The notes under the pieces were generated by a model. The model saw only the letters and a list, made by a program, of their open reading frames with translations, was not told the DNA's origin and made no database searches. From Candidatus Woesebacteria bacterium RIFCSPHIGHO2_01_FULL_39_32 (GTDB taxonomy: Bacteria; Patescibacteriota; Microgenomatia; UBA8517), in the NCBI GenBank assembly GCA_001792345.1, contig MGGJ01000013.1, forward strand, positions 21,371 through 85,370: 64,000 nt of DNA, in the 5' to 3' direction. The stretch's first letter is position 1; each line of letters opens with the position of its first letter. Shown here one piece after another: positions 3,145-61,986 of the stretch. A program made the translations under genes and the position numbers.

Positions 3145-3173
3145 TTGACAAATGATTAAACCTCCTATAATAT
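3145..3173 (+). promoter_or_regulatory. sigma70-like promoter (TTGACA ... TATAAT/TAATAT)
   Basis: ttgaca at 3145-3150 and tataat at 3166-3171 (15-nt spacer), or alternatively taatat at 3168-3173 (17-nt spacer). Confidence 0.45.
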
Positions 3174-3187
3174 TGCAAATTGCTGTT

Positions 3188-3229
3188 ATGACTACTGGCT
3201 ATTACTATTACTTTAGCCCAAGTTTTTAA
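3188..3229 (+). CDS. leader peptide MTTGYYYYFSPSF (4 tandem Tyr codons)
   Basis: atg act act ggc tat tac tat tac ttt agc cca agt ttt taa. The stop codon lies 5 nt before the terminator stem. It sits between the promoter and the decarboxylase-tyrS operon. Confidence 0.5.
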   Translation: MTTGYYYYFSPSF

Positions 3230-3233
3230 AAGC

Positions 3234-3258
3234 AACGCGCCTTTGAGCGCGTTTTTTT
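3234..3258 (+). terminator. intrinsic terminator / attenuator hairpin
   Basis: aacgcgc-ctttga-gcgcgtt followed by a T7 tract, 16 nt upstream of the decarboxylase ATG. Confidence 0.6.
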
Positions 3259-3274
3259 ATGCAAAAAAAATAAG

Positions 3275-4780
3275 ATGATTGAAGAAAGACAAATACTAAC
3301 AACAGATTTAGAACGAGTAAAAGACTTCTTTGTCGATCCAAGAAACCCACAATCAGCAGAAGATCTTGTTCAAATCGGGGGAGATGCAATACGTGTGATG
3401 GCCCAAATTTATTCCACGGCGGGACAGATTGAGTCAATGCCGCCAAAATTCAGGGATTGGTTGCAAGGCATAAAACCTGGAATGTCGGAACTTGAATCAG
3501 TAACAGGGGAAGTCCTAAGAATGGAAGCAAAAACCCGAAGGTTCGATGAAATGTTCATGGGTCAAATTCATCCACAAGGTAGCAAAATCGGAATAATTTC
3601 TAACTTAGTCGCTGCCTATATGAATAACAATCTAATAGTCGAAGATGTCTCTCAATCTGAAAGAGTAATGGAAAGAGAATCTATTAGATGGCTTGCAGAA
3701 ATTTTGGGATATGAGACCGATTTGGCAGGTGGAAATATCGTTACTGGAGGTACTGAAGCTAATGAAATTGCCCTTATGGTTGCTAGGGAAAAGCTATTGG
3801 ACTCAATGGGTTTGAAGAATCCCCTAAAGAGAGTTAAGAATCCTGTGCAGATGTATGTTTTGACTTCAAGGTGGAAACATTATTCGATAAGTAAAAAATG
3901 TGATGAATTAGGTATTGGTCTTCTGGAAATGCCATCTGATGACTTTAAGATTAATGTTCGCGCAACAGAAAAAGCGGTGAGGAAATTGAGAGAGAGAGGT
4001 AAGCATGTTGTTGCAATAGTCGGGTTAGCCGGCGAAACAGAGACTGGAGCCATTGAAGATCTTGAGGGACTTGCCGAAGTTGCGCATAATACTGATATTT
4101 ATTTCCATGTTGATGCAGCATATGGCGGACCTTTTGTGTTATCTAGAAGAAAAGATCTGTTCAAGGGAATTGAGTACGCAGACTCGGTCACAATAGATCC
4201 ACATAAAATGCTCTACACACCTTATCCTGCAGGAGCAATAGTGTTTAGAAACGCCAGCGATCAAGACTATCTCCACACAGATACTAGATATTTGGGGGCC
4301 GTGGCCTCAACATCCTCTGGATCTAGAAGTACTGCTGGCACAATATCCACTTACGCAACAATTAAACTTCTTGGAAATGATGGTATAGCAACCTTGTTAA
4401 ACCACACACTTGATTTAGTGGAAACAGCATATCATTACGTGGAAGATTCTAGAGTACTTAGAGCTCTACATGAACCGGAACTCAACACTATGTTAATAGG
4501 CCTAACTGATGATGTTAAAACAAGAGCGGCTCAAAGAGGAATTGACGGAAAAGCATACGATGACATGATTTGCGCAGTAATAAGACAAATTGACAATCAT
4601 CGATCTAGAAATCCTTACGTCTCAAACAATAGCGATGTAGATCCTGAAAAACGTTTTGGTAGGATCGGTAAACGAAGTGTTTTTAGATTTATAGCTGTTC
4701 ACCCTTATACAACTCATGAAGATGTCAGAACTACTCTTCAAAGAGTCGAAGAGACAGTTAGTGAAAAAATAGGGCTATAA
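3275..4780 (+). CDS. PLP-dependent group II amino-acid decarboxylase (tyrosine/aromatic decarboxylase-like)
   Basis: SVTIDPHKMLYTPYPAGAI contains the PLP-lysine motif of group II decarboxylases. Confidence 0.8.
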   Translation: MIEERQILTTDLERVKDFFVDPRNPQSAEDLVQIGGDAIRVMAQIYSTAGQIESMPPKFRDWLQGIKPGMSELESVTGEVLRMEAKTRRFDEMFMGQIHPQGSKIGIISNLVAAYMNNNLIVEDVSQSERVMERESIRWLAEILGYETDLAGGNIVTGGTEANEIALMVAREKLLDSMGLKNPLKRVKNPVQMYVLTSRWKHYSISKKCDELGIGLLEMPSDDFKINVRATEKAVRKLRERGKHVVAIVGLAGETETGAIEDLEGLAEVAHNTDIYFHVDAAYGGPFVLSRRKDLFKGIEYADSVTIDPHKMLYTPYPAGAIVFRNASDQDYLHTDTRYLGAVASTSSGSRSTAGTISTYATIKLLGNDGIATLLNHTLDLVETAYHYVEDSRVLRALHEPELNTMLIGLTDDVKTRAAQRGIDGKAYDDMICAVIRQIDNHRSRNPYVSNNSDVDPEKRFGRIGKRSVFRFIAVHPYTTHEDVRTTLQRVEETVSEKIGL

Positions 4781-58497: not shown

Positions 58498-58658
58498 TCT
58501 CTCGACTTTGTTCGGAATCAATGGTGAGCAAGGTCGAACCATTGACAAGTTTTATCTATTAAAGTATTATACTTTCCAACATATGAATATTTTTTATTCG
58601 GTTCAAAATCATCACTCCAGCCGAGTCTAACTCGGTTGGTGGTTTATTTATTTGATTT

Positions 58659-58682
58659 ACCCACCTAACCGGTGGGTTTTTT
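58659..58682 (+). terminator. intrinsic terminator
   Basis: cccacc-taacc-ggtggg followed by a T6 tract. Confidence 0.6.
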
Positions 58683-58712
58683 AGTCCTTAAAAAATCTAG
58701 TTCGACTCGACA

Positions 58713-58734
58713 ACCCCGCAGCTGCGGGTTTTTT
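58713..58734 (+). terminator. intrinsic terminator (second, in tandem)
   Basis: aaccccgc-agct-gcgggtt followed by a T tract. Confidence 0.6.
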
Positions 58735-58745
58735 GATGGAAAGAT

Positions 58746-58819
58746 GGTGAGTGTAGTGTAGCGGAAACACGCCAGTTTGTGGAGCTGGAATCGGGGGTTC
58801 GACTCCCCTCACCTACCCA
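58746..58819 (+). tRNA. tRNA-His(GTG) with an encoded G-1
   Basis: Hand-folded: G-1, acceptor GTGAGTG/CACCTAC (one A-C mismatch), anticodon stem CCAGT/GCTGG, loop TTGTGGA, T-arm GGGGG-TTCGACT-CCCCT, discriminator C73 pairing with G-1. Confidence 0.6.
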
Positions 58820-58856
58820 AGGGTGAACTCAAATAATTTGAAAGGAGGTAAATGTC

Positions 58857-58937
58857 ATGAACCGTCAAGAGCGACGGTGGTTAATATATCATGGCCACTG
58901 GCTCCACACCCTACGGCGAGGGGACTACCAATTCTAA
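58857..58937 (+). CDS. SD-led 26-aa mini-ORF (MNRQERRWLIYHGHWLHTLRRGDYQF), candidate leader peptide
   Basis: aaaggaggt lies 7 nt upstream of the ATG and is the strongest SD in the window. Three His codons within six positions. Its stop sits inside the loop of a 9-bp hairpin (58915-58962). Confidence 0.35.
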   Translation: MNRQERRWLIYHGHWLHTLRRGDYQF

Positions 58938-58973
58938 ATACATTTTCTTAATCCCCTCGCCAACCTAATTCAT

Positions 58974-59879
58974 ATGTATATCGATGACGAAAATAGATTT
59001 GAATATTTTTCTAGATGGGATAGAGATGAGGCTGCAAAAAAGGCCGATAATTTCTATAGTTTTATAAAATCTGTCTCCGTTGCTCCGCCCGAAAGACCAA
59101 TAAGAATAAAAGAACTGATACAATATACTGCACTGGGAATAGGAACTCCATTAATCATTAATTGGATCTGTCCAGTAGGAACTCCTTTAGAATTCGACTC
59201 AGAAACAAATAAACTATATAGAAGATATGCGCCAATAGATCCAGTCGAGGGATTCCAAAAAGATTATAGAATTATATCTAGAATTGGCCTTGAAAAAAGG
59301 CTGACAGAAATGATTGGGCAAATCCAATCTTCATTAGAATATGTAAAAATTGTTGCCGACAATAACCCATACTGCTTATATCCAGCCTGTCTTAGACTAG
59401 ACGGAGAGATAGACACAAGAAATGCTATAGAAACATATACAGGTTACGTACAAACTAAACTTGACGAGCTTATAGGATCCAAAAAAGTGGCGGTACTAAC
59501 ACTCTCCTCTCTTCTGGGCCAGCAGGGTTTTGAAGAATTTATGAATCTTTTCAAAGAAACTCAGGTGGACGATTTACTCCCCTTTCTACCAAATGATGTA
59601 TTAAAAACAGAAGTAGATATAATATCAAAGCATACCAAATTAGACCCATTATTAGAACCCAAGTTGGAATCTTTAGCAACTGATGTTATAAGACAATATG
59701 CGGTGGAAGGATTCTATTTATACAAAATGTTCGGAGATTCTGTAATTCTTGCTTGGAATGAGTCCACAAGAAGAAGCCAAATCATAGATTCTTTAAGAAA
59801 AGCTAGAGGAATTCCTCCCCTACCCAAAATATTTGTCTTGCACGAAAAAGGGAAAGGGCTAATTATTGACAATTATTAA
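58974..59879 (+). CDS. hypothetical protein, paralog A of a two-gene tandem pair
   Basis: 301 aa. Shares INWICPVGTPLEFD and YAVEGFYL...LAWNESTRRSQ with the next gene. Confidence 0.4.
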   Translation: MYIDDENRFEYFSRWDRDEAAKKADNFYSFIKSVSVAPPERPIRIKELIQYTALGIGTPLIINWICPVGTPLEFDSETNKLYRRYAPIDPVEGFQKDYRIISRIGLEKRLTEMIGQIQSSLEYVKIVADNNPYCLYPACLRLDGEIDTRNAIETYTGYVQTKLDELIGSKKVAVLTLSSLLGQQGFEEFMNLFKETQVDDLLPFLPNDVLKTEVDIISKHTKLDPLLEPKLESLATDVIRQYAVEGFYLYKMFGDSVILAWNESTRRSQIIDSLRKARGIPPLPKIFVLHEKGKGLIIDNY

Positions 59880-60712
59880 TGAATAAAAAAATTTTAAATA
59901 AAATTAAAGACAAATTCACTTACTCTCCACAAAACTGGAGCAAGCTAGCAAATTTATGGGAATACAACGAACCCATATCTTTCTACAGTTGGGAATGTCC
60001 TCCAAGGCAAATTCGGGAGGACAAAAAGTACGGAAGGTGGGTCAATTTTGACGTTGATATAAAGTCGGTTGTTGGGGGTAAAAAATTAGATAAGTTTACC
60101 GAACTTCCCAGGCTAACCTCTCAATGGAGGAAAGAAAAGTGGTTTTCAGAAAACATTATCCAAAAAAACTCCGAAGCAACATATACCAAGCTCATCGCCA
60201 ATACCAATGGATTATATCTTTACCCCAAATCTAAAAAGATATTGGGTGAAGAAAAAATAAAGTCTTTATCGAAAAAATTTAAAAAAATATTAGAAAAAAG
60301 GGCAAAAAAATTGTTGGGCAAAAACTCTCCCAAAATTGTTCTATATACCGAACTTCAAAATATTTTTAAAGTTGAATATGAAATGTTTTTTAAACTCGTC
60401 TATAGGTATCTCAGCAATAAAGAAAACGCAATCATCCCGAAAAGTATCATTGACTATTGGACGGATAGAATGATAAGCCACGTTGGCTTGACAAAGCAAG
60501 ACGAGAAAGAAAAGTTAATTATTTTAAAAAGAGTTATAGCCTCATACGCGGCAGAAGGCATAATCTTTGCCTTACTGGACAATACCAAGATTATGCCAAA
60601 TCCTGTATGGGTAAATTGGGAAGAAAAACCTGAATCTTCACAAACGTCAGAAATACTGAGAAAAAGATACGGTCTTGATAGTATCCCCGTAATTTACTTT
60701 ACTAAATACTAA
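59879..60712 (+). CDS. hypothetical protein, paralog B
   Basis: 277 aa. YSWECPPRQIRED and YAAEGIIF...VNWEEKPESSQT. ATGA overlap with paralog A. Confidence 0.4.
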   Translation: MNKKILNKIKDKFTYSPQNWSKLANLWEYNEPISFYSWECPPRQIREDKKYGRWVNFDVDIKSVVGGKKLDKFTELPRLTSQWRKEKWFSENIIQKNSEATYTKLIANTNGLYLYPKSKKILGEEKIKSLSKKFKKILEKRAKKLLGKNSPKIVLYTELQNIFKVEYEMFFKLVYRYLSNKENAIIPKSIIDYWTDRMISHVGLTKQDEKEKLIILKRVIASYAAEGIIFALLDNTKIMPNPVWVNWEEKPESSQTSEILRKRYGLDSIPVIYFTKY

Positions 60713-60729
60713 ATGCTAATATTTAAACT

Positions 60730-61986
60730 ATGGACAAACAGATGTTGCAACCAGTCAAAGGGTTTAGGGATTTTTTGCCGAAAGAGGCTAAGAAACGCAC
60801 TTTTCTTAAAAATAAATTCAGAGAGGTGTTTGAACTTTATGGATTCGAACCTTTAGAGACCCCAGCATTAGAATATCAAGAAGTACTCCTTAATAAATAC
60901 GGCGAGGAAGCAGACAAGCTAGTATTTAAATTCGAAGACGAAGGAGGAAGGAGAGTTGCATTACGTTATGACCAAACAGTTCCCACGGCCCGAATACTTG
61001 CCATGTATCAGCAAAATCTCCCAATGCCTTGGCGCAGATATCAAATTCAATCTGCATACAGGGCTGAAAAACCCCAAAAAGGACGGTTTAGAGAATTTAC
61101 CCAGTGTGATGCCGATATATTCGGTACAACCTCTCCCCTATCCGATGCCGAAATACTCGCAGCAGGAAATACCCTACTAACCAGTTTAGGTTTTAAGGAA
61201 TTCAAAATTCTCATTAATGACCGCGATATTTTATTCCAAATCATGGAGAGCGCCGAAATTCCCGAAAATATGCAGCTGCCAGTCATTCAAACAATCGATA
61301 AATTAGACAATAAAACTCGTGGAGAGGTGGAAGAAGAATTGGCCCAGAAAGGCATCTCAATCGATAGTGTTCACCTTCTTTTTGATTCATTAGACAAGGC
61401 TCGACCAACCGATAGGCTAGAAAAAACAATGGGGTTTGCAAGGAAACTGGGAATACCCGATTTTGTATTTTCTTTTACACCACGCTTGGCCCGGGGACTT
61501 GATTATTATAATTCAACAATTTATGAGTTTGTCATTGAGGGCTACGCTGCCGGATCCGTCTGTGGTGGAGGAAGATATGACAATCTCATAAACCAGCTTT
61601 CTGGAGTTAACATTCCTTCAACCGGTTATTCCTGGGGATTTGATCGTGTTATAGAGGCAATGGAACAATTTAAACTCTTCCCGCAAGAAGATAGAAGGCA
61701 AGGGGTTTTAGTTACAGTTTTTTCGCCCGAGCAGATTGAAAGCTCAACAGCCGTAGTTAAAAACTTGCGGGAAAATAAAATTGAAGCAGAAATTTTCCCT
61801 GATGAAAATACCAAACTTGAAAAACAATTACGATATGCCGACAAAAAAGGTATAAAGTGGCTTATTGTAATTGGTCCTGAAGAAGTGGAAAAAAATACTG
61901 TTATTCTTAAGGACTTGGAAACAGGTAAACAAGCGGATGTTAAGTTGGAAGAACTGGTTCGAAAATTTAAAGACACAAATGAATAG
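60730..61986 (+). CDS. hisS: histidyl-tRNA synthetase
   Basis: Class II motifs, VKGFRDFLP, and a C-terminal anticodon-binding domain. Confidence 0.9.
   Translation: MDKQMLQPVKGFRDFLPKEAKKRTFLKNKFREVFELYGFEPLETPALEYQEVLLNKYGEEADKLVFKFEDEGGRRVALRYDQTVPTARILAMYQQNLPMPWRRYQIQSAYRAEKPQKGRFREFTQCDADIFGTTSPLSDAEILAAGNTLLTSLGFKEFKILINDRDILFQIMESAEIPENMQLPVIQTIDKLDNKTRGEVEEELAQKGISIDSVHLLFDSLDKARPTDRLEKTMGFARKLGIPDFVFSFTPRLARGLDYYNSTIYEFVIEGYAAGSVCGGGRYDNLINQLSGVNIPSTGYSWGFDRVIEAMEQFKLFPQEDRRQGVLVTVFSPEQIESSTAVVKNLRENKIEAEIFPDENTKLEKQLRYADKKGIKWLIVIGPEEVEKNTVILKDLETGKQADVKLEELVRKFKDTNE

Follow-up and report, generated by a model that had tools for sequence, protein, structure and literature searches.

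Between a tRNA-His gene and a downstream unit comprising two unannotated genes (genes A and B) and hisS, Candidatus Woesebacteria bacterium RIFCSPHIGHO2_01_FULL_39_32 carries a mini-ORF with a strong Shine-Dalgarno (SD) sequence, followed by a hairpin. Both were encountered in a 64,000-nt stretch of contig MGGJ01000013.1 (hereafter the window). As they are conserved in seven further distinct loci, the comparative data confirm the mini-ORF and hairpin as a conserved element that did not arise by chance. We tentatively read this element as a translated cis-acting leader of the gene A–gene B–hisS message, which we regard as possible rather than probable. The element is most likely not the histidine sensor of the operon; that role most likely falls to a predicted His leader-peptide attenuator located upstream of the tRNA. 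The features of the locus are as follows.

58542–58570, + strand: promoter-like sequence TTGACA-17-TATTAT (11/12 matches), the probable operon start
58583–58630, + strand: His leader ORF MNIFYSVQNHHSSRV, with His codons at 58610–58615 and no SD
58617–58639, + strand: attenuator hairpin 1:2, in which CCAGCCGAGT pairs with ACTCGGTTGG and the loop holds the leader stop codon
58659–58683, + strand: terminator T1 (segments 3:4), a hairpin at 58659–58677 followed by six U residues
58715–58734, + strand: terminator-like hairpin T2, CCCGCAGCTGCGGG plus six U residues, directly 5′ of the tRNA
58746–58818, + strand: tRNA-His(GTG), with its body at 58747–58818 and an encoded G−1 at 58746 (53.9 bits)
58841–58849, + strand: SD of the mini-ORF, AAAGGAGGT, 7 nt 5′ of the ATG at 58857
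58857–58937, + strand: mini-ORF of 26 codons, MNRQERRWLIYHGHWLHTLRRGDYQF, with the conserved core W8–H17 at 58878–58907
58915–58961, + strand: hairpin 2, a 10-bp stem with a 27-nt loop enclosing the mini-ORF stop codon
58952–58965, + strand: TCCCCTCGCCAACC, the hairpin 3′ arm, a 12/14 direct repeat of the tRNA-His 3′ end at 58804–58817
58974–59879, + strand: gene A (301 aa, short form), with a predicted fold like that of class-Ic aminoacyl-tRNA synthetases (aaRS) and cyclodipeptide synthases (CDPS)
59879–60712, + strand: gene B (277 aa), a paralog of gene A
60730–61986, + strand: hisS (histidyl-tRNA synthetase)

Layout and conservation of the mini-ORF and hairpin

The layout agrees largely with a first-pass annotation of the window, which had placed a tRNA-His, an SD 7 nt before an ATG and a 26-codon ORF where we find them. 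That annotation had also counted three His codons within six codons (cat 58890, cac 58896 and cac 58905) and two Trp codons, as do we; the peptide contains five Arg residues rather than the four it reported. Its 9-bp stem with a 30-nt loop proved to be a 10-bp stem, in which GGCGAGGGGA (58915–58924) pairs with TCCCCTCGCC (58952–58961), and a 27-nt loop. The mini-ORF stop codon (TAA, 58935–58937) does lie within this loop, and the 3′ arm ends at 58961, 12 nt rather than 11 nt 5′ of the gene A ATG at 58974. The CCA end of the tRNA is only incompletely encoded, and the mini-ORF would sit on the RNA that remains once the tRNA has been excised.

Folding of the window leader is unusually stable (z = −4.2 and −3.1), and in the leader of each locus the SD or start region is predicted to pair with codons of the core. 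The hairpin was said to lack a U-tract and a clear alternative pairing, and we agree on both counts: neither a U-tract nor a listed terminator-like site was found 3′ of 58961, and no alternative pairing partner was found for the 3′ arm. We rejected an intrinsic terminator at this position because the U-tract is missing. Rfam searches returned the tRNA alone at the gathering threshold, and relaxing the cutoff to E = 10 brought up no meaningful match over 58819–58973.

Relatives of gene A were collected through protein and contig searches. Scanning contigs with the single gene A protein gave no match, and alignment-based scans gave 18 loci. An SD-led mini-ORF is found directly 5′ of short-form gene A in eight distinct Woesebacteria loci (the window, L001, L002, L003, L015, L018, L022 and L023); the relatives bearing it are related groundwater bacteria. 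The first-pass annotation had proposed checking the conservation of the mini-ORF and of its His codons. The former is kept in all eight loci, but the latter number three, two or one depending on the locus.

The consensus of the core is [RKQ][RKN]-W-L-x-[FY]-[HQ]-G-[HN]-W-L-H, and the invariant residues of the mini-ORF are M, W, L, G, W, L, H and L. Synonymous variation occurs at both Leu codons and at the Gly codon of the core. Pairwise comparison of the 10 core codons yielded 62 synonymous and 54 non-synonymous codon differences in the mini-ORF frame, compared to 30:119 and 24:130 in the other two frames, both counted over the core and interrupted by stop codons. As changes are mostly synonymous in the mini-ORF frame alone, we conclude that this frame is probably translated and selected as a peptide. 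The SD (GAAAGGAG) is kept in five of the six aligned loci, and an SD-like GGAG or GAGG lies 6–8 nt 5′ of an ATG, GTG or TTG in every copy. None of the mini-ORF peptides was present among the predicted proteins searched, and their exact sequences are unannotated in public protein collections.

The tail that follows W-L-H behaves differently from the core. Its reading frame differs between close relatives (RKILIKKSKQSVQP versus RKILIKNQNNLCNRN...), because the hairpin loop contains a run of 5, 6 or 7 A residues. In L003 the stop codon directly adjoins the stem; the window and L001 have it within the loop, L015, L018 and L022 just 3′ of the stem, and L002 and L023 inside gene A. Measured from the stop codon to the gene A ATG, the spacing ranges from a 32-nt overlap to a 56-nt gap across loci (the L003 value was recounted by hand). 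Given that both the tail and the stop position vary, the mini-ORF looks regulatory and not like a finished protein. In the window and L001 the mini-ORF is in frame with gene A and separated from it by a single TAA; in L002, L003 and L015 the two frames differ. Stop-codon readthrough or bypass fusing the two was rejected, since the frames are not common to all loci. We also considered kinship of the mini-ORF to a TrpR-like protein of L003 and found no similarity.

The full core motif accompanies only short-form gene A; long-form loci are without the element. In one of these, L006, the gene A ATG is about 80 nt after the tRNA, and a shorter SD-led ORF (MKESKRGWVHPGL) ends 10 nt 5′ of gene A.

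A stable stem of 10–14 bp is present in all eight mini-ORF loci, ends 11–16 nt 5′ of the gene A ATG and folds with z = −3 to −7.7. Two unrelated stem sequences are used, GGCGAGGG.../...CCCTCGCC in type 1 and GGTTGCACAGA/TCTGTGCAACC in type 2. When L002 was compared with L015, the 3′ half of the core together with the hairpin was 92–95% identical at the nucleotide level and formed the best conserved stretch of the locus; the tRNA gene was 62–75% identical, the gene A windows reached at most 82% (over the part compared), and the HisS proteins are just 63% identical. As judged from such comparisons, the RNA is also under constraint, alongside the peptide core. We computationally masked the 5′ arm of the hairpin and found that the predicted unpaired probability at gene A positions −12 to +13 was unchanged or lower. 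Sequestration of the gene A start by the hairpin is therefore unsupported, as opening the stem gives no predicted gain in accessibility.

Probable histidine sensing upstream of tRNA-His

The promoter-like sequence at 58542, also present as the same motif in L001, is the only strong site of its kind on the + strand between 58300 and 62100. Transcription most probably starts here and, as this site stands alone, tRNA-His through hisS would constitute one apparent transcription unit. About 12 nt after the −10 hexamer is the ATG (58583) of the His leader ORF, whose two adjacent His codons (58610–58615) lie 2 nt 5′ of segment 1. Segment 2 offers the 5′ arm of T1 an alternative partner, and their pairing creates an antiterminator. 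When folding was constrained by a ribosome at the His codons, the 2:3 antiterminator resulted, while a ribosome at the stop codon allowed T1 to form. The element at 58583–58683 thus combines consecutive cognate codons just before segment 1 with mutually exclusive 1:2, 2:3 and 3:4 pairings, of which 3:4 is an intrinsic terminator.

Equivalent leaders precede a terminator in L001 (MNIYSKVLNHHSSRV, of the same design), L006 (MRSLSLHHHHSHE) and L009 (MESVLTQSHHHEPA). The His leader peptides of relatives contain HHHHSH or HHH at the equivalent site, and second hairpins like T2 also occur in relatives. No Rfam family matched the upstream element at threshold, and His_leader was not listed; its sub-threshold matches were Trp_leader (22.5 bits versus a threshold of 41, E = 0.044) and Phe_leader (E = 0.45).

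The likeness to the his, trp and phe leader attenuators thus resides in this upstream element and not in the mini-ORF. It shares with them a short ORF in which His codons follow one another, a 1:2 hairpin whose loop holds the stop codon, mutually exclusive pairing of 2:3 or 3:4, and a U-tract. It differs from classical his leaders in having just two His codons and a leader ORF without an SD, in controlling a tRNA-His gene besides hisS, and in being followed by a second terminator-like hairpin. His leaders upstream of hisS paralogs have been described, and switching between T-box and His leader at hisS is known (PMC2965389).

A comparable switch is seen among the relatives. The His leader is replaced by a T-box-like leader in L002, L005, L011, L013, L015, L017 and L018; this type of element is absent from the window. 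The T-box-like core (AAUUAAGGAUGGGACCGCG, AUGGGACCGCG or AAGGAUGGGACCGCG) contains a UGGG that fits the discriminator C73 of tRNA-His, a CAC is displayed in the GUCACGA loop of a covarying hairpin, and a terminator follows. These leaders recall the T-box riboswitch (RF00230) in a core that resembles the T-box sequence, in the CAC as a candidate specifier codon and in the terminator, but Stem I is shrunk to a small hairpin. Searches with RF00230 gave no match at the gathering threshold in 12 loci and none for L002 at E up to 1; L011 scored 22.9 bits against a threshold of 93 (E = 0.0025). A literature search returned no paper linking T-box riboswitches to this group, or CDPS to Woesebacteria.

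The first-pass annotation had combined the mini-ORF with a Tyr leader at position 3188 into a proposal that this organism senses amino acids through leader peptides in its aaRS operons. Attenuation is indeed used, but the Tyr leader (MTTGYYYYFSPSF, followed by a terminator) is situated 5′ of a gene for a PLP-dependent decarboxylase and not of an aaRS gene. It shows that the organism uses leader-peptide attenuation elsewhere too.

Genes A and B and cassette exchange

The two unknown genes and hisS reported downstream are indeed present, and they are followed by genes for an EamA transporter and L31 (the latter assigned by synteny with L003). Genes A and B have no Pfam match, even at E = 5, and no match among PDB sequences. 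Their paralogy was recognized by hhalign with a probability of 99.5%. AlphaFold models of both (pLDDT 94) were compared by Foldseek with known structures, and the matches were catalytic domains of TyrRS and TrpRS as well as CDPS, with TM scores of 0.4–0.65.

Genes A and B thus have in common with CDPS and the class-Ic aaRS TyrRS and TrpRS a predicted Rossmann fold, here of 270–300 aa, and with CDPS the lack of ATP-binding motifs, as inspection of the consensus sequences revealed no HIGH or KMSKS. They differ in having no sequence match to these families, Pfam CDPS membership included, in forming an adjacent pair of paralogs and in belonging to a very rare family (65 representatives among 1.84 billion). 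CDPS carry a catalytic Ser after a β-strand. In genes A and B an invariant Cys (C66 in gene A, C40 in gene B) follows a β-strand in the motif W-[IE]-C-P, at a place that may correspond to that of the catalytic Ser. This Cys and a Y-A-x-E-G motif are only reminiscent of CDPS residues; the catalytic Ser with its Tyr and Glu residues was not recovered.

Most relatives of gene A are 400–470 aa long. The gene A of the window lacks their N-terminal extension of ~150 aa, a segment that is poorly conserved and gives weak HTH matches. On an NJ tree of gene A, which is poorly resolved, the short forms occur at scattered positions. The long-form loci L005, L008, L011, L017 and L029 have the gene A ATG only 1–3 nt after the tRNA-His 3′ end, so that tRNA 3′ processing would leave a message with almost no leader. 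The gene A of the window has no SD, which is ordinary here as most genes of the window are without one; by the same token the strong SD of the mini-ORF is exceptional, with an SD of at least 6 nt found in only about 4 of the ~60 genes.

The flanks of L015 and L018 (T-box-like leader, tRNA, hairpin and hisS) are 85–98% identical, but the A–B cassettes they enclose share only 35% and 32% protein identity. One breakpoint lies where the hairpin meets the start of gene A, the other at the start of hisS. From these alignments we conclude that genes A and B are exchanged together, as a cassette, within flanks that are nearly identical. The N-terminal variants of the mini-ORF occur in shuffled combinations with the two A–B cassette types, which argues against a specific partnership between peptide and enzyme.

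Candidate functions of the mini-ORF and hairpin

How might a translated leader act here? Excision of tRNA-His would leave an RNA starting about 20 nt 5′ of the strong mini-ORF SD. Ribosomes would load at this SD and translate the mini-ORF, so that the 10-residue core is just finished when they meet the hairpin, and would then terminate in, just after or beyond it. Translation of the mini-ORF would set the number of ribosomes reaching the SD-less start of gene A, 11–16 nt past the hairpin, and would probably also protect the processed 5′ end. As the core is conserved as a peptide, we infer that the nascent chain may slow or arrest the ribosome at the hairpin base. The element is independent of the enzymes, and conservation of the flank stops where the hairpin gives way to gene A, both of which speak for a cis-acting leader. 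Several observations weigh on the other side. The spacing from stop codon to gene A ATG is loose for termination-reinitiation, gene A does not obviously need ribosome delivery where an SD is missing from most genes, opening the hairpin is not predicted to make the gene A start more accessible, and the long-form loci manage without the element. A trans-acting micropeptide would account equally well for the conservation of the peptide.

The cis-acting leader has recognizable counterparts. The leaders ermCL, catA86 leader, TnaC, SecM and SpeFL likewise consist of a short SD-led ORF just 5′ of a gene, with a conserved core, a variable tail and a hairpin that the ribosome must enter. As in leaders of the erm, cat and SecM type, the mini-ORF has its own ribosome binding site and lies immediately upstream of a gene. 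Unlike in those leaders, its hairpin contains neither the start nor the ribosome binding site of gene A, and hence the sequestered downstream start of the erm and cat systems is missing. The core is not known to resemble any arrest peptide.

The strongest rival to this reading is that the mini-ORF encodes a trans-acting micropeptide, whether an enzyme partner, a cofactor or a metal-binding HxH peptide, with the hairpin setting only expression or stability. Selection at the amino acid level on the 10-residue core, a strong SD amid an SD-poor genome and the confinement of the full core motif to short-form loci lacking the ~150-aa extension would all be expected of such a peptide. The tail, however, is frameshifted among close relatives, neither the position of the stop codon nor the overlap with gene A is conserved, and the nucleotide sequence is conserved beyond what a peptide needs. 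Furthermore, the peptide does not co-vary with the two A–B cassette types and shows no sequence similarity to the N-terminal extension whose place it would take; this lack of similarity likewise disposes of the mini-ORF as a remnant of that extension. A micropeptide acting in trans is thus unlikely. A RiPP precursor for genes A and B is unlikely as well, as its tail would be frameshifted and its variants do not track enzyme type.

Another explanation assigns the primary role to the hairpin, as a tRNA-like processing or stabilizing signal (an acceptor plus T-arm minihelix) that would mark where the gene A message begins, much as the genuine tRNA-His would in long-form loci, or as a scar of integration at the tRNA. 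In the window, TCCCCTCGCCAACC matches the tRNA-His 3′ end TCCCCTCACCTACC (58804–58817) with a shuffle p of about 0.02. The hairpin 3′ arm of L001 is identical to the tRNA 3′ end at 12 of 13 positions (shuffle p about 0.007). From this repeat in type-1 loci, the stem resembles a stacked T stem and inner acceptor stem. The placement of gene A also fits, with the long-form ATG 1–3 nt after the annotated tRNA-His 3′ end and the short-form ATG always 11–16 nt after a helix of 10–14 bp, as does the point at which L015 and L018 cease to match, right at the hairpin/gene A start. The type-2 hairpins, however, have no similarity to their tRNA, the stem has neither the top of an acceptor helix nor a T-loop, and the mini-ORF reads into or through it. 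An att-site model was rejected, as no third copy of the repeat exists in the window, and no integrase is nearby. The 3′-arm repeat could represent a tRNA-like processing signal, a duplication or integration scar, or chance. We consider the reading of the hairpin as a tRNA-like signal or integration scar quite unlikely.

The first-pass annotation had suggested that ribosome pausing at the His codons modulates the hairpin. In its full form this model states that ribosomes stall at the mini-ORF His codons when charged tRNA-His runs short, and that a stalled ribosome melts the hairpin, so that gene A, gene B and hisS are expressed more strongly. The setting within a tRNA-His/hisS operon invites it, and the mini-ORFs of L001, L003 and the window each place three His within six codons. 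All eight loci share one invariant CAC, which lies inside the hairpin 5′ arm in the type-2 loci; moreover, L003 and L004 lack tRNA-His and a recognized upstream His leader or T-box, leaving the mini-ORF as the only candidate sensor there. Other features of the mini-ORF are those of neither a His-codon run nor an attenuator. Its His codons are non-adjacent, number three, two or one (a single one in L018 and L022) and undergo H→Q and H→N replacement, whereas W, L and G residues are as invariant as the last CAC. Type-1 loci have the last His codon 10–11 nt upstream of the stem, type-2 loci 5–7 nt within it. From the type-1 spacing, a starved ribosome would barely touch the window stem; with CAC 58905 in the A site, geometry suggests that it would reach only about 58915–58917, the stem base. 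The hairpin leaves the gene A start uncovered, its opening brings no gain in accessibility there, and it has neither a U-tract nor an alternative hairpin. Finally, a dedicated His attenuator or T-box-like leader is found upstream in most loci. With histidine sensing most likely placed upstream of the tRNA and a single invariant His in the mini-ORF, the pausing mechanism is poorly supported, and we judge it improbable.

The weakest rival, chance occurrence of the ORF and inverted repeat, draws on a window rich in such features (8 kb contain 109 ORFs with 20 aa or more, the window as a whole has 29 inverted repeats of 10 nt or longer, and AAGGAGG is unenriched at 10 copies versus 8.4 expected), which by themselves do not rise above chance, and is refuted by comparative data to the point of being negligible, as ORF, hairpin and spacing are kept in eight loci and the ORF has a coding signature.

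The translated cis-acting leader remains our preferred reading. A bolder version would make the mini-ORF a new nascent-peptide sensor (W-L-x-F-H-G-x-W-L-H) that acts with the hairpin as a second, translational checkpoint behind the transcriptional His attenuator, reading a small molecule (histidine or the enzyme product, for instance) and setting the level of a swappable, His-tRNA-using aaRS/CDPS-like pair. We consider this version a long shot.

We know of no earlier conserved regulatory micro-ORF in Candidate Phyla Radiation (CPR) bacteria; if the cis-acting reading is true, the mini-ORF would, to our knowledge, be the first in this group. Its combination of an RNA left by tRNA excision, a strong SD in an SD-poor genome, and selection on both peptide core and stem is not known from any textbook system. 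In these streamlined CPR genomes, predicted His attenuation and T-box-like control are interchangeable at the tRNA-His/hisS operon. The same operon embeds a very rare, unannotated aaRS/CDPS-like pair that is exchanged as a cassette between near-identical genomes. The locus therefore offers a testable entry into the tRNA-dependent chemistry and gene regulation of uncultured bacteria.

Leaders upstream of tRNA-His and elsewhere in the window

We conclude that the region 5' of tRNA-His is a classical His leader-peptide attenuator with the parts listed below. Comparison with Rfam assigned no family to this region at threshold. Judging from sequence, the leaders of seven loci of gene A relatives (L numbers; coordinates local to each locus) appear to be T-box-like and specific for His, and their Stem I is very short. 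GUCACGA forms a hairpin loop in these leaders, and UGGG within the core AUGGGACCGCG matches C73. The Rfam T-box model either did not match these leaders or scored far under threshold.

Leader features
Window 58542-58737: His attenuator, with promoter, leader ORF MNIFYSVQNHHSSRV lacking an SD, mutually exclusive hairpins 1:2/2:3/3:4, and terminator T1
Window 3146-3275: 'Tyr leader', with TTGACA/TATAAT promoter, MTTGYYYYFSPSF and terminator
L002 730-1091: T-box-like leader
L005 3150-3300: T-box-like leader
L011 1128-1317: T-box-like leader
L013 3300-3470: T-box-like leader
L015 3530-3690: T-box-like leader
L017 1-40: T-box-like leader
L018 3490-3650: T-box-like leader
L003 355-868 (= L004 3321-3830): region 5' of the mini-ORF

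No tRNA-His, recognized His leader or T-box was found in the L003/L004 region; upstream of the mini-ORF lie instead a gene for a TrpR-like HTH protein and a hairpin resembling a terminator. The first-pass annotation had taken the 'Tyr leader' for the leader of an aaRS operon, but the next gene encodes a PLP-dependent decarboxylase (Pyridoxal_deC) rather than an aaRS.

Genes A and B

Genes A and B (58974-60712) are adjacent paralogs, with confident structure predictions of folds like those of class-Ic aaRS and cyclodipeptide synthases. Both lack HIGH and KMSKS motifs, contain an invariant Cys within W-[IE]-C-P, and gave no Pfam or PDB sequence match. The family has just 65 representatives in a set of 1.84 billion proteins. 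It adjoins hisS in most loci examined, L001 and L024 being the exceptions. All that remains of hisS in L001 (2692-3372) is a 23-codon N-terminal remnant 3' of gene B, and after this remnant come two small genes, one of them for a PhdYeFM antitoxin.

The A-B pair is exchanged as a cassette between L015 (3977-5682) and L018 (3941-5621). Nucleotide identity of the flanks (T-box-like leader, tRNA-His, hairpin and hisS) is 85-98%, whereas protein identity is only 35% for A and 32% for B, and the breakpoints are sharp.

Boundaries of tRNA-His

In five loci where gene A has its N-terminal extension (long form), only 1-3 nt separate the tRNA-His 3' end from the gene A start codon, such that tRNA 3' processing would yield an almost leaderless mRNA. 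If such processing occurs, this junction would be a bacterial counterpart of the tRNA punctuation seen in mitochondria.

tRNA-His 3' end/gene A start junctions
L005 3615-3620
L008 3472-3476
L011 1442-1447
L017 215-220
L029 664-669

The 3' arm of the hairpin before gene A (58952-58965) repeats the 3' end of tRNA-His (58804-58817) in direct orientation, with 12/14 positions identical. The corresponding arm in L001 likewise repeats it (12/13); type-2 loci, with an unrelated stem sequence, have no such repeat. The AAAGGAGGT of the mini-ORF is conspicuous because the genome is SD-poor, only ~4 of ~60 genes in the whole window having an SD of at least 6 nt.

Besides T1, another hairpin of terminator type, also with a U-run (58715-58734), lies only ~10 nt 5' of tRNA-His, and one is likewise found directly 5' of tRNA-His in L002, L005, L011, L015, L017 and L018. 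This hairpin would stop transcription regardless of the attenuator outcome.
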